Below are positions 54,254-61,997 of a DNA stretch of 64,000 nucleotides, piece after piece (within the stretch, counting starts at the first letter, position 1; each line of letters starts with the position of its first letter). The stretch is from Acidobacteriota bacterium (GTDB taxonomy: Bacteria; Acidobacteriota; UBA6911; RPQK01; JAJDTT01), in contig CBDCLS010000004.1 in assembly GCA_965218775.1 (NCBI GenBank), positions 983,890 through 1,047,889 on the forward strand. Direction: 5' to 3'. The notes beneath the pieces were generated by a model that did no database searches, was not told the origin of the DNA, and saw only the letters and a program-made list of their open reading frames with translations. The position numbers were made by a program, and so were the translations under genes.

Positions 54254-54265
54254 TCTAGGCTGAAT

Positions 54266-54395
54266 AGTGAGCAGTGATGCCGTGAGTAGTGAGCAGTGCC
54301 GCGAACGACGTGACTGGCTAGCAGTATGAGGCCAGGTTCCGGCCGTCGAGGACGACGAAGGTGGGAGCGAGCCGGACAACAGCACAATCCACCGT
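54266..54395. repeat. REP-like repeat, family B, copy 3 (with an internal deletion)
   Basis: agtgagcagtgatgccgtgagtagtgagcagtgccgcgaacgacgtgactggctagcagtatgaggccaggttccgg...gagccggacaacagca. Confidence 0.55.
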
Positions 54396-54470
54396 GACCG
54401 AATCCCAATTTGGAGCCACCACCTTCGGGCAACTCCAGATTGCGCAAAACGTCAGCCCCAGAAAAAGCGC

Positions 54471-55168
54471 CTAAATCCACCTGACCTTGACGTTGCTGAT
54501 CCCATTCTGGATGTCGAATCTGATCATTTTCCCGGCGCGATCCAAATTCTCACTGTAGTAGGTGTCCCCCTTCTTCTTGAAACCGGACCGGCAGCACTTC
54601 GAAAAGAATCCATCTCCCGTTCTAATCTCGGCTCCCACATCGCTTGGAATCCGTAATTCAAGGCTGCCAATACCAACCTGGATAGCCACATCGCCATCTT
54701 GTAGCCATTCTCCCGAGAAATCCAGTTTCGCGGTCCCCACTCCACCGCTGAAGCTAAGTTCTTTGAATCCAAAGTTACCCAGACCGATCACGGTCAGAGA
54801 CCCGACGCCGCTATCGAGCGTCACCCGCTCGCAGTCGATTTTATTGGGCTTCAACATCGAAAGCGTGGTCTCACCGATCCCATTACTCAAGCTGAATGAA
54901 CGGGTCGACAGACCGGTGAGATCTATCCTGCTTTCGCCGACACCCGTCTGGGTAACCAGATCAAGTTCCACCATGGGGTTCAGTCGCAGATAGAGTCGGG
55001 TGTTCGAACTCCCATCCAACCAGTCCTGCCCCATCTTGCACTGCAACCGAGCGAGATCTCCCCTCCTTTGCACGTCCAGACGGGGCTCAACGGCCCGGCC
55101 GTCGAAGCTGACTTCAGCCTCGTAGAGACTGGATGGATCTCCCTGATCAATCATTAGATATCCCACTT
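54471..55168 (-). pseudogene. the 3' portion of a DUF4097 (toast-rack/LiaG-like) lipoprotein gene, split by an IS insertion
   Basis: The repetitive beta-strand domain reads in the same frame as the 5' fragment at 56485..56647 once the IS and one TSD copy are removed. Confidence 0.6.
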
Positions 55169-56484
55169 CAGTAGTGTCCCAGCGTTAGTCGAATAATATC
55201 AACTGTTTATGAATGTCACTATTCTGAGTAATGTAGTCCATGTCCTGAAAGGCCTGTAAAATGGGGGTTTTCTCGAAGAGCGAGACGCTCAGGACCTGGA
55301 GAATTGTGTAGAGCGGCAACTCGAGATAGAGACGCTTGCGAATGATGGCGATGAGCAGGTAGGTGCTGAGGGCGATCCAGATTTGTGTTTTCACGGCATT
55401 GGGACTGGTGCCGTAAAAGGCCTTGATGCGGAGATGCTGTTTGATCCATTTGAAGAACAGTTCGATCTGCCAGCGGAGCTTGTAGAGCTGGGCAATGGTC
55501 AGAGCGGGAGAAGCAAAGTCGTTGGTGAGGAATACGAGCCGCAGGTCGGTGGTGACGTCGAAGAACTTGATACGACGCAAAGGTTCGGGGTAGGCCTTGG
55601 CCGGATAGAAGGTGCTCAGCAGGACAGTTTGGTCGCAGACTAGTCCGGTCGTTCTGTCCACCGCATGGGAGTAGCGGCGGCGGAACTTGAAGTTGGCCTT
55701 GGCGCGGGTCACGAACAACGACCGAGCGGTATGGAGTCGGTACAGGCGCCCGAAATCCAGGTATCCGCGATCCATGATGTAGTAGGCACCGGGACAAGGC
55801 ATCAGGTGGTCCAAGGCGTTGACATCGTGCAGTTTCCCGTCCGAGATCAGAACAAATTCGGGAATGGCGCCGTGCAGGTTGAGTAAGGTATGCAGTTTGA
55901 TCGCCCCCTTGGTGCGGCGGAAGCGCGCCCAGGGGAAGACCGAGAGGCACAGGTCGATGGTCGTGGAATCCAAGGCATAGACGGTCGCGTCCAGGTCGAC
56001 TCCCAGGTCCTCGTCGGTGTAAAGGCTGCGCGCTTCGGCGATGAGCACTTCGGCAAACTCGGCATAGATGCGCCAGTCTCGCCTCTCGTTGGCATTGGAC
56101 AGATTGTTGCGGGAGACCGTGGAGCGAATGCCCATGTGGAAGAGCTTGGATCTCATGGCCCGTAGGCAGGCTTCGATATCGCGCAAGCTCTCGCGATAGG
56201 TCAACTGCGCAAATGCCATGACCCGGTAATGGTCGGCACAACGGAATGACTTGACCTTGTAGTCGCCTCGGTAGTGCTGAACAATGCGATGAAAACGATG
56301 CCAGGGAAGATGCCGCATCACCTGAGAAAAGATCGTCGTGCCCGTGTACATGCCCGCCCTCCTTATGAACTGAAGGGCGTGAGCATACACTCACTTTCAA
56401 GTCGGAAACACCTATTATCTTCTCTAACATATTGCTCATTAATACTTTACAGAGATTAGAGTCCCAAACGTTGGGACACTACTG
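55169..56484. mobile_element. IS4-family IS element, 1316 bp, with an 18-bp terminal inverted repeat and a 9-bp target-site duplication
   Basis: The terminal inverted repeat is cagtagtgtcccagcgtt (55169-55186) / aacgttgggacactactg (56467-56484), with 1 mismatch. The direct repeat atcccactt lies at 55160-55168 and 56485-56493. The element has lower GC than its flanks. Confidence 0.8.
55185..56390 (-). CDS. IS4-family DDE transposase
   Basis: Its C-terminus LYKLRWQIELFFKWIKQHLRIKAFYGTSPNAVKTQIWIALSTYLL is the classic IS4 signature. Confidence 0.8.
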   Translation of the reverse strand: MYAHALQFIRRAGMYTGTTIFSQVMRHLPWHRFHRIVQHYRGDYKVKSFRCADHYRVMAFAQLTYRESLRDIEACLRAMRSKLFHMGIRSTVSRNNLSNANERRDWRIYAEFAEVLIAEARSLYTDEDLGVDLDATVYALDSTTIDLCLSVFPWARFRRTKGAIKLHTLLNLHGAIPEFVLISDGKLHDVNALDHLMPCPGAYYIMDRGYLDFGRLYRLHTARSLFVTRAKANFKFRRRYSHAVDRTTGLVCDQTVLLSTFYPAKAYPEPLRRIKFFDVTTDLRLVFLTNDFASPALTIAQLYKLRWQIELFFKWIKQHLRIKAFYGTSPNAVKTQIWIALSTYLLIAIIRKRLYLELPLYTILQVLSVSLFEKTPILQAFQDMDYITQNSDIHKQLILFD

Positions 56485-56647
56485 ATCCCACTTCGAGATA
56501 CACTTCCGCTTCAAGCCGGCTCTCCCCTTCGAGAGGACCTACCTCGCGGATGCTTTCGCTGGCTAAGTCATTACTGTGCAGGGAGACTCCACAAGACGTC
56601 AGAAAAACCAAACACGGTAGCATCGAACTAATCTTTGGCATGCTCAC
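56485..56647 (-). pseudogene. the 5' portion (lipoprotein signal peptide plus ~35 aa) of the IS-disrupted DUF4097 gene
   Basis: It reads MSMPKISSMLPCLVFLTSCGVSLHSNDL... (lipobox LTSC). Its start overlaps the stop of the upstream gene (ATGA). Its frame joins 54471..55168 across the TSD as ...EVG|YLMIDQ.... Confidence 0.6.
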
Positions 56648-58401
56648 CCTCTCTGTCTGATCCGGATCTTTGAGTAGGTCGTTCGAAGTTGAATCTGAGG
56701 CGCGCCCTGACCGCGGACCAGATCCAGGACACCCTTGCTCTCGTCCCCCGGAGGCGGGAAATCTGAAAGAACCTGCCCTCCTTTGGAGCGCGCCGTCAGG
56801 GTAAAGTCGCTGTCGGCAGGAATCGACAAAGAAATCTCTCCGTAGCTGTTGGAAGCCGTGATCGGACCGAGTAGAGGACTGGGTACCGTTATCGAGATCT
56901 TGCCGTACTCATTCTCTACTTCGACAGGCCCGGAAACCCGTTCGACCACTACCGCTTTAAATGATGTTCCTACCTTGACGGGTCCCCCGACCTGGGCTAG
57001 AGAGACCTTCGAACCGCGTCCCACGATGGTAGCACCAGCCCCGATGTCCTCCGCCGCCAGGTCGGCGAAGGTGGCCTTGGCGTCGAGAAAACCCTTGATG
57101 TTGGAGAGACTCACCTCACTGTAGGACGTCACCAAATCCAGGCCATCCCCCAACTGCTGAGCGCTCACCCTCTTGTACGAATTCTCAATCGAAACGCTTT
57201 TCTGAACATCGGAAACGTCCACCTCAGATCCCGATCCCTGCACGGTGACCTGGCCGGTTACGTCTTCCACTCGGACCTGGCCGAAGTGATTCTTCGCCTC
57301 TAGATCGCCATCGATATTGCGAGCCGTAATCGTCTTGTAACTGCTCTCCAGGTGGGTACTTCCGACAATCTTCTGGACGGTAATGGAGCCGTGCCGGTTG
57401 TGCGCAAGAACGGTGCCGATGACATTCCGAATCTCGATGCCCTTGTACCTGTTGGTCACCTCCAGATTCCCGGTTACGGATTCCACGTAGACTCGCCCAT
57501 AGGTACTCTCCAGCCTGCACGGCCCTCCGATGCCGGAAACACGGGTATCGCCATAATCATTCCTGACGGTCAGGGTTACCGTCTTGGGAACTTTGATAGC
57601 AAGATGAGTGCGCAATCTCTGCCCCTGCCTTCCGAGTTGCTTTCGGTTGGTACCGATACGAAGGACATTTCCCTCCCGAGCTGTCGCAATCGTGAATTTT
57701 TCCGCCTGTGTCTTGGCGTCCTCCTCTGAGCGATCACGAACAACTTTCTCGAGCTCGATCTCGACGCTCTCGGACTGAGCAGAATCAACGCGAACACGTC
57801 CGTAGGCATTCGTCACTTCCACGGTGTCGATCCCCACTGCCTCGAGACGTCGCTCGACCCGAAAGCGATGTTCCTGGACCAAAACCCCTTCCAGGACCTC
57901 CGGGAACACAGTGCCTTCCCCAAGACCAATCAGAGCAAAATGGGCGCGGGAGATTTGTCCTGAGAGCAGGCCCAGACTAACGATCAGGAGAATGCCTAGG
58001 ATCTCTGCCGCCCTGACACGGATTGGCGTCTCCATCCGCAAGAAATCGATCACCTTTCCCAGGCCCAGGAGAATAAGGATGGCAGGCCAGTAGCTTGTGA
58101 AGACGTTCCAGCCGTCGACGATCCCCAATAGATCGCATAGAACAAGCGTCCCTACCGAGGTCCAGAAAATGCCGCTGAGCAGCCCCACCTTTCCGGGTCT
58201 GCTGTGGAGCTCCGACTCGCTCCAGGTGAAGTGCCGGACCAGCCGGGTGAGGCCAACCAGGATCAAGAGGCCCGGCACCGCGATCTTGAGGATCAAGGAC
58301 CACCCAACCGACTTCGGAAGGAGACTTGGGACGAAAAACAGCAACCCCAGCAATACCAGGGCGACTCCAAAGAGGAGCGTCTTAATTTGCTTCTTGGCCA
58401 T
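56644..58401 (-). CDS. membrane protein with N-terminal transmembrane helices and a C-terminal DUF4097-like repeated beta-strand domain
   Basis: Hydrophobic N-terminal segments are followed by repetitive V/T-rich beta units similar to the downstream lipoprotein. Confidence 0.55.
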   Translation of the reverse strand: MAKKQIKTLLFGVALVLLGLLFFVPSLLPKSVGWSLILKIAVPGLLILVGLTRLVRHFTWSESELHSRPGKVGLLSGIFWTSVGTLVLCDLLGIVDGWNVFTSYWPAILILLGLGKVIDFLRMETPIRVRAAEILGILLIVSLGLLSGQISRAHFALIGLGEGTVFPEVLEGVLVQEHRFRVERRLEAVGIDTVEVTNAYGRVRVDSAQSESVEIELEKVVRDRSEEDAKTQAEKFTIATAREGNVLRIGTNRKQLGRQGQRLRTHLAIKVPKTVTLTVRNDYGDTRVSGIGGPCRLESTYGRVYVESVTGNLEVTNRYKGIEIRNVIGTVLAHNRHGSITVQKIVGSTHLESSYKTITARNIDGDLEAKNHFGQVRVEDVTGQVTVQGSGSEVDVSDVQKSVSIENSYKRVSAQQLGDGLDLVTSYSEVSLSNIKGFLDAKATFADLAAEDIGAGATIVGRGSKVSLAQVGGPVKVGTSFKAVVVERVSGPVEVENEYGKISITVPSPLLGPITASNSYGEISLSIPADSDFTLTARSKGGQVLSDFPPPGDESKGVLDLVRGQGAPQIQLRTTYSKIRIRQRG

Positions 58402-58942
58402 GATGGTTCTTTTCTGGAGTTGGTGGAAGTGGAGGGGCTTGCTGTGGAGCAGAACCCTCTTTCCGCGACTTTCTCAGCCCGCGCAAGTAGTCGAAGATCA
58501 GGTAGCTCCCCAGACCTATGAAGATAAGAGGCCAGAACTTGACGATGGCGTGGACCCTGAAGACATCGAGACTATCCAGGAGGAAGACGATCCCCATCAG
58601 GATCAAGGCGCCACCCCACAGGGGAAGGTTGATCTGCTCTGGGGAATCTGCCTGGGAAGGACTGGGTGTTCTACGGGCAATGACTTCAGCAGAGCGGTAG
58701 GCGTCAATGATCGTGAATATGTAGAAGACAAAGGCTGCCATTGTGAACGGTTCGACGCTCTCACCGACAATCATCAGACCGGCGAAGACAGCGAAGTGAA
58801 CCACTGCCTTGATGTACTCCCGGTTGTAGACGGCCCCTATGCTTGGGATCAGGGCTGCCGCCGCCGCCCGGCCGGGAGAGTGACTCTGCCCTCGGACAGG
58901 CTGATGGGGCGCTGTGTGCTGTGCGTCTTGCTGGTTATTCAT
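58382..58942 (-). CDS. membrane protein of unknown function in an ECF-sigma operon
   Basis: It has 4-5 predicted transmembrane segments and overlaps both neighbours. Confidence 0.4.
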   Translation of the reverse strand: MNNQQDAQHTAPHQPVRGQSHSPGRAAAAALIPSIGAVYNREYIKAVVHFAVFAGLMIVGESVEPFTMAAFVFYIFTIIDAYRSAEVIARRTPSPSQADSPEQINLPLWGGALILMGIVFLLDSLDVFRVHAIVKFWPLIFIGLGSYLIFDYLRGLRKSRKEGSAPQQAPPLPPTPEKNHHGQEAN

Positions 58943-59549
58943 GTTTACCTACCTCGTCGCCTCCGTCCTTTTCAGCTGACTGGAGCTCCTGGAGTGAGTC
59001 AGTGTAATCCTGGAAGGGGAGGGTCAAGATGTGAGAGTCGAATCGACCCAGAAGATCCTCCTGAAAGAATCTGATTCCTTGCGTCGTTCTGGACCTCAAA
59101 TGGTGCAACCAGATCCACTGCTTGTAAGCCTCTCCGGAAAGCCGGTCCGCCTTTTCAACCAGGGCAAGAGCGGCTGGATGAGAGGGACTCAATGCCGACA
59201 GCTCGGATCCGAAAACATTCACCATGAGGGAGACGAAGGCAAACAGCACCGAGACTGCAAAGGCATGCCTGGTAGAGAACACAGAAGGAGTCAGACGACC
59301 GAGGAGAGCGGGCCAAAAAGCAGGAGGCTTGCTGCCAGAAGTCCGGTCGAGGATTCGATGCACCAGCCTGTCCGGCAGATCCAGTGCTGGCGAGGATCGC
59401 AACTCTTCCCGGATCTGTCGAACCTCCTCCAGTAGGGAGGAGCAGTTGAGACAGCCGCGCAGGTGCGCCGTCGCTCTGGATCGGGTGTCGTGATCGAGGG
59501 CGCCCTCGAGGTAGTCTGAAAGTAGCACCTCAAAACTAGAGCAGTTCAT
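58935..59549 (-). CDS. anti-sigma factor with a zinc-finger (ZAS, HxxxCxxC) motif and a transmembrane segment
   Basis: The N-terminus carries HLRGCLNC, which is the zf-HC2 pattern. It lies immediately downstream of, and overlapping, the ECF sigma gene. Confidence 0.6.
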   Translation of the reverse strand: MNCSSFEVLLSDYLEGALDHDTRSRATAHLRGCLNCSSLLEEVRQIREELRSSPALDLPDRLVHRILDRTSGSKPPAFWPALLGRLTPSVFSTRHAFAVSVLFAFVSLMVNVFGSELSALSPSHPAALALVEKADRLSGEAYKQWIWLHHLRSRTTQGIRFFQEDLLGRFDSHILTLPFQDYTDSLQELQSAEKDGGDEVGKHE

Positions 59550-60105
59550 GGAGCTGCCTCTTCCTCAGAATCCCGGCCAGTCGGACTCGGCCCCGGTTGA
59601 TGCGCGACTTGACCGTCCCCTCGGGAATGTTCACGAGCTCCGCGATCTCATGGTAGGTCAGGTCCTCGATGTCTCGGAGGATGACCGCTTCCTTCAGCTC
59701 CAGCGGTAGCTCCTGTAGGGCCGACTCGAGTAGTTTTCCTTGTTCCTTGGTGTGCATGGCCTTGAAGGGATGGATTCGGGTGGATTTCGTTTCGGGTACG
59801 CCGGGTTCGTCGAGGGGAACCTCCTCCTTTTCACGTCTGTGGGCACGCCAGTAATCAACGATGTGGTTTCGGCCAACCGACATGATCCAGCTCTGGAAGG
59901 AACCGCGGCCTGAAGCAAAGCGAGAAAGGTTCTGGTAGACCTTCAGAAAGATGTCCTGGGTGAGTTCTTCAGCTACTGCATGATTGCCAGTGTAACGATG
60001 AGCCATGTTCAGGATCTTTCGACCATGAGTTCTAATCAGTTGTTCCCACGCCAGCGGATCTTTGCTCAGGCAAAGCTGAACCAGTTTCGCGTCTGATTCT
60101 TCCAA
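59536..60105 (-). CDS. ECF-type RNA polymerase sigma-70 factor
   Basis: The region 2 sequence IVDYWRAHRRE and the region 4 HTH TYHEIAELVNIPEGTVKSRINRGR are present. Confidence 0.85.
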   Translation of the reverse strand: MEESDAKLVQLCLSKDPLAWEQLIRTHGRKILNMAHRYTGNHAVAEELTQDIFLKVYQNLSRFASGRGSFQSWIMSVGRNHIVDYWRAHRREKEEVPLDEPGVPETKSTRIHPFKAMHTKEQGKLLESALQELPLELKEAVILRDIEDLTYHEIAELVNIPEGTVKSRINRGRVRLAGILRKRQLHELL

Positions 60106-60320
60106 CTAGGTGCCTACCTCGAAATAGGAGTGCTTCCGGGGAGCTGAGTACTTCGGGTGCCGGACGATCTCCCAAGGACCTCGTTCCTGTCACCTCGTTC
60201 CCAGTCTTGCCCTTCCCCAAAGTGGAACGTTCTCGAAGGGAGCACCAAGCTCGTTTTGCATCTGAAGGTGTCAACGAGGTAAGAACCGAAAAAGTTCAAT
60301 GCTTTCTTAGTTCATTCCAA

Positions 60321-61997
60321 TCAGCCGCCATTTTGACCTCGAGCAAGCACGATGTCGCTGTCGGTGACGATGGTGTTCATCGCTCTTTGAAGATGCATCA
60401 CAGCCAGTTGATAGTCGATTTGGGCTCTCAACTCCTGAACCTGGGCTTCCGCCAGGTCCCGCTGATAGGTCAAGAGCTCGAAGTTATTGGACAGTCCCGC
60501 CTCAAAGCGACGGGTCTCCAGGTCTAGCTGCTCTCCGGAAAGCTGGAGCGCCAGGCGGGCTACTTCCAACTGCTTTTTCTGGGTGGTGATGCTTTCAAAG
60601 GCGTTGCGAACCTCCTCGACGATCAACATCTGCTGGCTCTTGAGTTGACTACGCAGCTGACGTTCGGCGATGGCGGTCCTTGCCAGATCGCCTTCATTGA
60701 CTCGATTGCGCAAGGGAATGGTCACTTCCACGCCTACGCCGTAGTCGATGAAATCGAAGCCGAGCGCCCGGGAGACAGAAGTTCCGAGATTACCTGAGAA
60801 GGGATGATCGGGATCGGGCTCGCGGGCAAGCGCCCCCAGAAAGTCGACATTCCTGAACGTCTGTCCCGAGGTTCCCACGGAGCCGATGTTAGCGCGAAGA
60901 TTGACCCGGGGCTTCCCTACGTTCTTGTAGAAGTCGTAGTCGACCTGGTTCTTCTCCAGCTGGAGACGAATCCGCTCCAGCTCGGGTCGGCTCGCGAAAG
61001 CGTTCTTAATCGCGTCCTTCAAAGTCATCTCCACATCTCGAACCTCGGGTCGGTCGGTGGGGATCAGTGTCAGGCTCCACATCGACGCATTGGGATCTGG
61101 TGCCAGCAACCGCTTGAGTGCGTTCTGGTAACGGATGATCTGGACTTCCGACTGGATAACCGTCTTCTCTCGGGTCGATACCTCGGTGCGGGAGCGGCTG
61201 ACCTCGATGGGAGCCAGGATCCCGATGTTAACCCGCTTCTTGTTGTCTCGGTGCTGCAGGATCGCCAGTTCTCGGGACTGTCTCCGAATCTCGTGGTCGT
61301 TGATGGCGGAGACCAACTCCCAGTACTGTTCCTGGACCTGCTGGATGATTCCAGTGACCCTTTCCTTAAACTGGCCATCGTCGATTCGACGATCGAGGTT
61401 GTAGAGCTTCAACTGGTGCTCGGTTTGGGTCTTTCGGAAGCCCCTCCACAAAGGCTGCGTGAAGGAGAAGTCCGAGGTCGACCAATAGTTGGGATTGATC
61501 GTGGAGAAGAGACTATTGTTTGATCTTCGACTGTTGTTGAACTGAAACTCGAAGGCACCACCACCCGGAACCTGCTGGCTGATCGAAGAGGTCAGTCCCA
61601 GGTTCTTGGAGCTGGAAGTTGTGATACCACGGCCCGCCTCCAGGATGCTGATGGCGGGGAACTCACGCGAGTCCCAACGAGCACCGAAGCTGAACTGGGG
61701 GTCGTAGAAACCCTCGGCGGAGGTGATCAGCTCTCGAGTGATCCCTTCGTTGTAATCCTCGATCGCAATCTCGAGGTTGTTGCTAAGGGCCAGTCTGACC
61801 GCATCCTTGATTCCCAGCTCGAGAAACCCTCCCTGGCGACGAACCTGATCAACCCAGGGGAAACTCTCAGCGAACTCTTCTTCGGGGTCCTCCGCAGCTG
61901 GATCGGGGTCGCGTGGGGCCTGCCCCCAGCAAAGAGGGCCAGCAAAGAAGACTGGCAATAGCAGAGCAAAGACGAGCTCGCGGATCGGCTTCTTCAT
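60321..61997 (-). CDS. TolC-like outer-membrane efflux protein
   Basis: It has two repeated halves with coiled-coil-rich periplasmic segments. It has a signal peptide MKKPIRELVFALLLPVFFAG (start is the complement of 61995-61997, with a GGAG ribosome-binding site). Confidence 0.7.
   Translation of the reverse strand: MKKPIRELVFALLLPVFFAGPLCWGQAPRDPDPAAEDPEEEFAESFPWVDQVRRQGGFLELGIKDAVRLALSNNLEIAIEDYNEGITRELITSAEGFYDPQFSFGARWDSREFPAISILEAGRGITTSSSKNLGLTSSISQQVPGGGAFEFQFNNSRRSNNSLFSTINPNYWSTSDFSFTQPLWRGFRKTQTEHQLKLYNLDRRIDDGQFKERVTGIIQQVQEQYWELVSAINDHEIRRQSRELAILQHRDNKKRVNIGILAPIEVSRSRTEVSTREKTVIQSEVQIIRYQNALKRLLAPDPNASMWSLTLIPTDRPEVRDVEMTLKDAIKNAFASRPELERIRLQLEKNQVDYDFYKNVGKPRVNLRANIGSVGTSGQTFRNVDFLGALAREPDPDHPFSGNLGTSVSRALGFDFIDYGVGVEVTIPLRNRVNEGDLARTAIAERQLRSQLKSQQMLIVEEVRNAFESITTQKKQLEVARLALQLSGEQLDLETRRFEAGLSNNFELLTYQRDLAEAQVQELRAQIDYQLAVMHLQRAMNTIVTDSDIVLARGQNGG

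Follow-up and report, generated by a model that had tools for sequence, protein, structure and literature searches.

Probable disruption of the terminal gene of a conserved ECF sigma/toast-rack operon of Acidobacteriota by a complete IS4-family insertion sequence

RESULTS

The locus and its features

We analysed a stretch of 64,000 bp (the window) from an Acidobacteriota bacterium (assembly GCA_965218775.1, contig CBDCLS010000004.1, positions 983,890 to 1,047,889), in which a five-gene operon headed by the gene of an extracytoplasmic function (ECF) sigma factor adjoins a complete insertion sequence (IS) of the IS4 family. Very probably this IS has entered the fifth and terminal gene of the operon, a conserved ECF sigma/toast-rack operon of Acidobacteriota, and has split a lipoprotein gene in two. 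The locus had previously been described from its letters alone (the sequence-only reading), and all window coordinates and counts of that description were reproduced by exact recounting. The features are collected in Table 1; loci and proteins used for comparison carry L and P numbers, respectively.

Table 1. Features of the operon, the split gene and the inserted element, with positions in the window
Feature	Position	Strand	Remarks
Candidate ECF-type promoter, GGAAC-N16-CGTC	60163..60187	-	Putative, read from the sequence
Gene 1, ECF sigma factor, 189 aa	59536..60105	-	Sigma70_r2 + Sigma70_r4_2; TIGR02937 102.9 bits vs 42.9
Gene 2, ZAS-type (zinc-binding) anti-sigma factor, 204 aa	58935..59549	-	Pfam zf-HC2 32.1 bits vs 22.2
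Gene 3, LiaI/LiaF-TM membrane protein, 186 aa	58382..58942	-	LiaF-TM 36.7, LiaI-LiaF-like_TM1 32.9 bits vs 27
Gene 4, membrane protein, 585 aa	56644..58401	-	LiaF-TM-like N-terminus + DUF4097 toast-rack (LiaG-like)
Gene 5, 5′ fragment	56485..56641	-	Signal peptide, lipobox LTSC, ~35 mature residues
Target-site duplication, copy 2	56485..56493		ATCCCACTT
Terminal inverted repeat, transposase-proximal end	56467..56484		Reverse complement CAGTAGTGTCCCAACGTT
Complete IS4-family IS	55169..56484	-	1316 bp; ends set by terminal inverted repeats and duplication
Transposase gene	55185..56351	-	388 aa from ATG 56351; Pfam and NCBIfam matches
Terminal inverted repeat, transposase-distal end	55169..55186		CAGTAGTGTCCCAGCGTT; other IS copies identical at this end
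Target-site duplication, copy 1	55160..55168		ATCCCACTT; 9/9 identical to copy 2
Gene 5, 3′ fragment, toast-rack body	54471..55168	-	~229 codons + stop; aligns end to end with intact 281-aa orthologues

Removal of the element rejoins a lipoprotein reading frame

As found, the 5′ fragment of gene 5 runs into the IS and meets a stop codon at 56456; its start lies two bases past the stop of the upstream gene, in agreement with the gene call at the orthologous locus L001. When positions 55169-56493 (1325 bp) were deleted in silico, the two fragments rejoined in a single frame of 846 nt (281 aa) from the ATG at 56641, or of 852 nt (283 aa) from the GTG at 56647, and the rejoined junction reads ...EAEVYLEVG/YLMIDQGDP... 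(the slash marks the junction). The IS enters 1 nt after codon 52 if the ATG is taken as the start, and 1 nt after codon 54 if the GTG is, and neither fragment has gained a stop codon or a frameshift. The precise split and in-frame rejoining proposed by the sequence-only reading are thus borne out, in the length of the reading frame as well as in the junction peptide. The reconstructed N-terminus MPKISSMLPCLVFLTSC is, as had also been proposed, a signal peptide that ends in a lipobox, L-T-S-C with Cys17 (read by eye), in agreement with the consensus [LVI][ASTVI][GAS]C, which is kept as (L/M)TSCG in close orthologues; the reconstructed protein is a predicted lipoprotein and would reside outside the cytoplasm.

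A search of 5.8 billion proteins with the reconstructed protein as query returned uninterrupted homologues of exactly 281 aa, namely P0001 (86% identity), P0004 (78%) and P0003 (72%), all of which align without gaps over the junction. Uninterrupted 281-aa orthologues in related genomes lie in the same operon, and the two fragments of the window fall in one frame, so the claim of one split gene withstood this comparison. Scans of the GTDB representative genomes and of JGI metagenomes gave no 100% match, with relatives at ≤86% identity in the former and at ≤42% only in the latter, and no exact match to the 585-aa product of gene 4 is on record. The 154-aa protein P0007 was considered as a second disrupted allele and rejected, because a frameshift and not an IS divides the gene (154 + 127 aa), in a 6x assembly. 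For annotation, 54471-55168 and 56485-56641 are best recorded as one IS-disrupted pseudogene and not as two genes.

Ends, copies and family of the element

The terminal inverted repeats (TIRs) of the element are 18 bp long and identical at 17 of the 18 positions between the two ends; a repeat search gives them as a 19-nt arm of 95% identity, the extra T/A pair of which overlaps the duplication. The 9-bp direct repeat outside the TIRs is perfect, and a 9/9 repeat at a fixed position has a chance of ~4e-6. On the coding strand the duplicated target reads AAGTGGGAT. Length, TIRs and direct repeat had all been given in the sequence-only reading, and each agreed on recounting. No other copy of the IS or of its TIRs is present in the 64-kb window. 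On other contigs, by comparison, we found seven full-length copies, each of 1316 bp, 95.7-95.9% identical to that of the window and with the same terminal bases, and four of the seven (L012, L013, L015 and L017) are flanked by perfect 9-bp duplications of unrelated sequence. Thus the ends of the IS and the length of its duplication are fixed independently of the window. Copies at different sites with duplications of their own imply past transposition, and the IS is apparently transposition-competent.

The nearest copies (~96%) are unnamed metagenomic sequences. Near-identical copies in L012-L018, which are long-read contigs (ENA ERZ2506xxxx-ERZ2507xxxx), lie amid other mobile genes, including IS240 and IS66 transposases, resolvases, a group II intron reverse transcriptase and a RepA_C plasmid replication gene, which suggests that the IS travels on plasmids or mobile islands. 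In three short-read copies (L019-L021) the flanks are mismatched, and these may have arisen by IS-mediated recombination or as assembly chimeras. The latter possibility touches on the window as well, where the junctions of the IS could be a repeat-induced misjoin and the gene really intact: the window probably derives from a metagenome-assembled genome (MAG), its relatives are all MAGs, and L019-L021 suggest chimeric joins around the element. However, a perfect 9-bp duplication of the length usual for this IS, together with a perfect in-frame rejoin, is what true transposition leaves and a misjoin does not, and we consider an assembly artefact extremely unlikely.

For the inserted element itself, assignment to the IS4 family comes from its transposase. 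The sole long frame of the IS contains no frameshift and reaches upstream to a GTG at 56390 (401 aa); the nearest database transposases, 96-97% identical, are every one 388 aa long, which argues for ATG 56351 as the probable real start. The protein matches Pfam DUF4372 (106 bits) and DDE_Tnp_1 (101.9 bits, cutoff 23) and NCBIfam NF033592 transpos_IS4_1 (257.7 bits, cutoff 115), and the models of IS5, IS701, IS1634 and IS982 all score far under their cutoffs. The IS4 family is characterized by a DDE transposase with Y-(2)-R-(3)-E-(6)-K in region C1 (PMC2266710), and this YREK motif is present as YKLRWQIELFFKWIK at residue 303 of the 401-aa frame. The IS4-family label given at first sight therefore stands on the profile matches together with the motif. 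The duplication of 9 bp and the 18-bp TIRs also agree with the family trait of TIRs and a duplication of ~8-13 bp. Table 1 of De Palmenaer et al. (2008, PMC2266710) describes the IS4Sa subgroup by a size of 1150-1750 bp, ends of the form CA------T and a duplication of 8-10 bp; the IS of the window has 1316 bp, ends CAGTAGTGT... with T at position 9, and 9 bp, respectively. The element fits an IS4Sa-like subgroup, a placement that rests on these three features. It may be recorded as a new member of the IS4 family, one that is common among the environmental genomes of this group.

The sequence-only reading had further mentioned a lower GC content of the element. Numerically this is true, since the IS has 54.4% GC against 57.9% for the window, at the 5.6th percentile of 1316-bp windows, but the observation carries almost no weight. 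The host DNA that adjoins the IS is equally low (51.5-55%). The other copies have ~55% GC and their flanks 51-62%, mostly 57-62%, with a deficit at all copies but L021. GC content as a sign of foreign origin was rejected, because the difference is too small and neighbouring host genes are as low.

An empty site in the closest relative

The closest relative of the window, L011, has an empty site without IS, and its flanking genes are 97.3% (OEP), 98.8% (PQQ) and 98.3% (BNR protein) identical to those of the window. Judged from these assemblies, the insertion is polymorphic between close relatives and not fixed among them. Moreover, a perfect duplication, a full-length transposase, undecayed gene fragments and the empty site in L011 together make it probable that the insertion is evolutionarily recent. 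A recent origin had been proposed before, and it is upheld by the intact 281-aa orthologues in the same operon and by the empty site in a relative of ~97-99% identity.

The comparison with L011 is uneven along the operon. BLAST identity was 85.6% on the upstream side of the IS and 96.9% on the downstream side, and a 200-bp sliding comparison gave 76-89% over 60400-57600, 99-100% over 57600-56800 and 84-93% over 56800-54676, with the rest mostly at 97-100% apart from short dips at 54475-54276 and 52875-52676. That the IS marks the edge of a recombination patch was rejected, because the mosaic has no break at the IS and the segment 56800-54676 spans the site. Identity falls to 76-87% (window 57600-60400, L011 4329-7000) from the sigma gene through those of the anti-sigma factor and LiaF-TM protein into the DUF4097 gene, of which the 5′ half is affected. 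Over this regulatory half the sigma (83.5%), anti-sigma (78.4%) and LiaF-TM (76.4%) genes are far below the 97-99% of the flanks, and the window anti-sigma and LiaF-TM genes are nearer to those of L002 (87.6 and 90.3%, respectively). The low identity to L011 and the closeness to L002 thus point to allelic exchange, probably with the operon's regulatory half as the exchanged allele in a recombination mosaic. A 156-aa call of the sigma gene in L011 was examined as a truncation and rejected, since the whole 189-aa frame can be read from a TTG start and the gene is intact.

The operon and the expected effects of the insertion

The product of gene 1 has sigma70 regions 2 and 4 only, and the adjacent anti-sigma factor shows the HxxxCxxC motif (HLRGCLNC), which identifies the two as an ECF sigma/ZAS pair; their genes overlap by 14 nt. 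Gene 4 matches Pfam DUF4097 (35.8 bits vs 22.9), with a weak match to LiaI-LiaF-like_TM1 and a partial match to NCBIfam LiaG. The four upstream genes lie on one strand with overlapping or almost abutting frames, and the order ECF sigma, ZAS anti-sigma, membrane protein, TM-DUF4097 (TM, transmembrane) and lipoprotein last was correctly given in the sequence-only reading. The same five genes occur in the same order in the Acidobacteriota MAGs L002-L006 and L011, in all of which gene 5 is free of an IS, and in L003-L006 all five genes are intact. From this context the lipoprotein is most likely a periplasmic partner of the membrane toast-rack/LiaF-TM proteins in a sigma/anti-sigma sensing complex.

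About 60-80 nt upstream of the sigma start lies GGAAC-N16-CGTC, a candidate autoregulated ECF promoter, directly preceded by a tandem GGAACGAGGT repeat; its counterpart in L001 is weaker (GGAAA-N16-CGTT). A scan of the region for sigma-70 consensus promoters found nothing. At the other end of the operon, a gene for a HAD-family hydrolase and a 102-aa ORF separate the lipoprotein gene of L001 and L002 from a convergent PQQ beta-propeller gene (L001 8870-10116, which corresponds to window 54254-54470), and in the window, L011 and L004, which are without these two, the spacer is only ~0.2-0.5 kb.

Cut-and-paste transposition by the DDE transposase, with a 9-bp staggered cut of the target, has produced the duplication of AAGTGGGAT. 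The insertion has parted the export signal (signal peptide and lipobox) and ~35 mature residues from the toast-rack body, and, with signal and body separated, no full-length lipoprotein could be exported; to judge from the sequence, the function is probably lost. Because the interrupted gene is the last of the operon, the four upstream genes should stay unaffected, without polar effects. Transcription of the operon may, in turn, read into the co-oriented transposase gene.

Such read-through raises the question of whether the insertion alters function instead of only abolishing it, with sigma-dependent transcription driving the transposase and transcription out of the IS expressing a signal-less 231-aa fragment from a GTG at 55166. 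This would accord with the transposase and the operon both lying on the minus strand, with the failure to find a terminator-like site either in the stretch from gene 4 to the IS or where the IS ends, and with the GTG-start ORF (54471..55166) that begins within the duplication. However, no recognisable ribosome-binding site precedes the GTG, and a body without its first strands and export signal would probably neither fold nor arrive in its compartment. Hence we consider an altered function quite unlikely, and the simple disruption of gene 5 remains our preferred reading.

A second IS in the sigma gene of a relative

In the Acidobacteriota MAG CBDCMS010000003 a different IS4-family IS lies inside the orthologous ECF sigma gene (L001 3319-4662, equal to L002 5319-6662). 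It is 1344 bp long, its transposase is 60.6% identical to that of the window, its TIR starts with CACTAGTGTCCAA, it has made a 9-bp duplication, GCAGTAGCT, and its removal restores a 189-aa sigma factor. The orthologous operon has therefore been struck independently in two relatives. Two insertions among seven operons are suggestive but not significant, because the window was chosen for having an IS and the genomes are IS-rich.

Recurrence could nevertheless mean that insertions here are not random, either because inactivation of the module is selected or because the operon is a preferred target. The insertion of the 1344-bp IS in the sigma gene at L001/L002, the frameshift in gene 5 of L011 and the unusual divergence of the regulatory half, which close relatives share at 76-87% identity where their flanks have 97-99%, are all in line with this. 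On the other hand, a second insertion in a non-essential 4.4-kb operon of such genomes is not improbable, the targets AAGTGGGAT and GCAGTAGCT are unrelated, as are the positions hit, the duplications made by this IS elsewhere share no motif with the window target, all five genes are intact in L003-L006, and the L011 frameshift may be a sequencing error of a 6x assembly. Given that only two of seven operons carry an IS, we regard selected or targeted insertion as unlikely. A wider proposal would have the ECF sigma/toast-rack operon repeatedly disabled or remodelled under fluctuating or diversifying selection, with IS insertion and rare precise excision acting as an on/off switch. It would draw on the independent IS4-family insertions in the sigma gene (L002) and the lipoprotein gene (window), on the possible L011 frameshift, and on the divergent allele that has replaced the regulatory half in genomes whose flanks are ~97-99% identical. 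We hold it to be improbable too; if it were true, phage or antimicrobials that act on a surface-exposed sensor would be an example of the pressure on the module.

The split protein belongs to the toast-rack superfamily

The sequence-only reading had called the lipoprotein a DUF4097 protein. At the level of the Pfam family this label failed, as PF13349 gave no match at E≤0.01 for the reconstructed protein and 10 homologues; at the level of the toast-rack superfamily it stood. LiaF-like_C scored 23.7 bits on the reconstructed protein, under the cutoff of 29, and was found in 6 of the 11 family members, under or near the cutoff; Toast_rack_N (PF17115) matched two of the 11, both homologues, with a best E of 6e-20. 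A profile of the family matched PDB 4QRK (4qrk_A) at E=1e-30 and 110 bits. In agreement with this, an AlphaFold2 model of the orthologue P0001 (pLDDT 84, pTM 0.82) is all-beta, in keeping with the single-stranded beta-helix of the toast-rack fold, and Foldseek placed 4QRK first (E=2.9e-14), with three toast-rack structures termed ‘putative adhesin’ (3PET, 3LYC and 4OPW) next; the TM-scores are moderate (0.50/0.63). Ravi et al. (2024, PMC11237479) join DUF2154, DUF4097 and DUF2807 as ‘Toastrack’. Thus, without a DUF4097 match and with likeness to LiaF-like_C, Toast_rack_N and 4QRK, the split protein is a member of the toast-rack superfamily, of the DUF2154/LiaF-C branch. On the P0001 model the insertion point, residue 52/53, falls inside a predicted strand (42-58) in the N-terminal, intertwined part of the fold.

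DISCUSSION

The reading that we regard as very probable is a simple one, the insertion of a complete IS into the terminal gene of the operon, and the event is an ordinary one, a routine IS insertion that makes a pseudogene, which is useful for annotation and not surprising. Some points weigh against it. The IS of the window differs by ~4% from every other copy, and no recent donor copy was identified. Gene 5 of L011 (8001-8845) is itself split into 154 and 127 aa by a single frameshift, which, in a 6x long-read assembly such as L011, may reflect a sequencing error instead of a true pseudogene. Finally, the loss of the lipoprotein and the lack of polar effects are both effects that we infer. 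The locus would represent a natural knock-out of the toast-rack lipoprotein that ends this uncharacterised ECF sigma module, and the relative with the interrupted sigma gene would provide a second one; given isolates or transcriptomes, comparison of the two could show what the module senses. In the literature we found no paper joining ECF sigma factors with DUF4097 on all three search terms.

Among known elements, the IS resembles the IS4Sa-like ones in its single DDE ORF, YREK motif, 5′-CA ends, size and duplication length, and its transposase is 59 and 54% identical to those of ISPosp4 and ISGme2, respectively, which are plasmid-borne and annotated as IS4-like.

The protein can be compared with the toast-rack proteins of PMC11237479: its own operon also encodes LiaI-LiaF-TM and DUF4097 members together with a sigma factor, which is a type of context noted there. 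Toastrack domains were argued in that work to be generally intracellular, whereas the reconstructed protein (54471-56641) carries a lipoprotein export signal; it is a small counter-example to the intracellular rule, like the ‘putative adhesin’ structures of Bacteroides.

The operon as a whole, which would be of the envelope-stress type, recalls liaIHGFSR of B. subtilis (LiaF, LiaG), with which it shares LiaI/LiaF-TM and toast-rack domains encoded beside a regulator. However, the Lia module is run by the two-component system LiaRS, whereas the operon of the window has an ECF sigma/ZAS anti-sigma pair in its place, and, unlike Lia/PSP modules, it contains no PspA/LiaH gene. Moreover, the host of the window, a member of the Acidobacteriota, is diderm, unlike B. 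subtilis.

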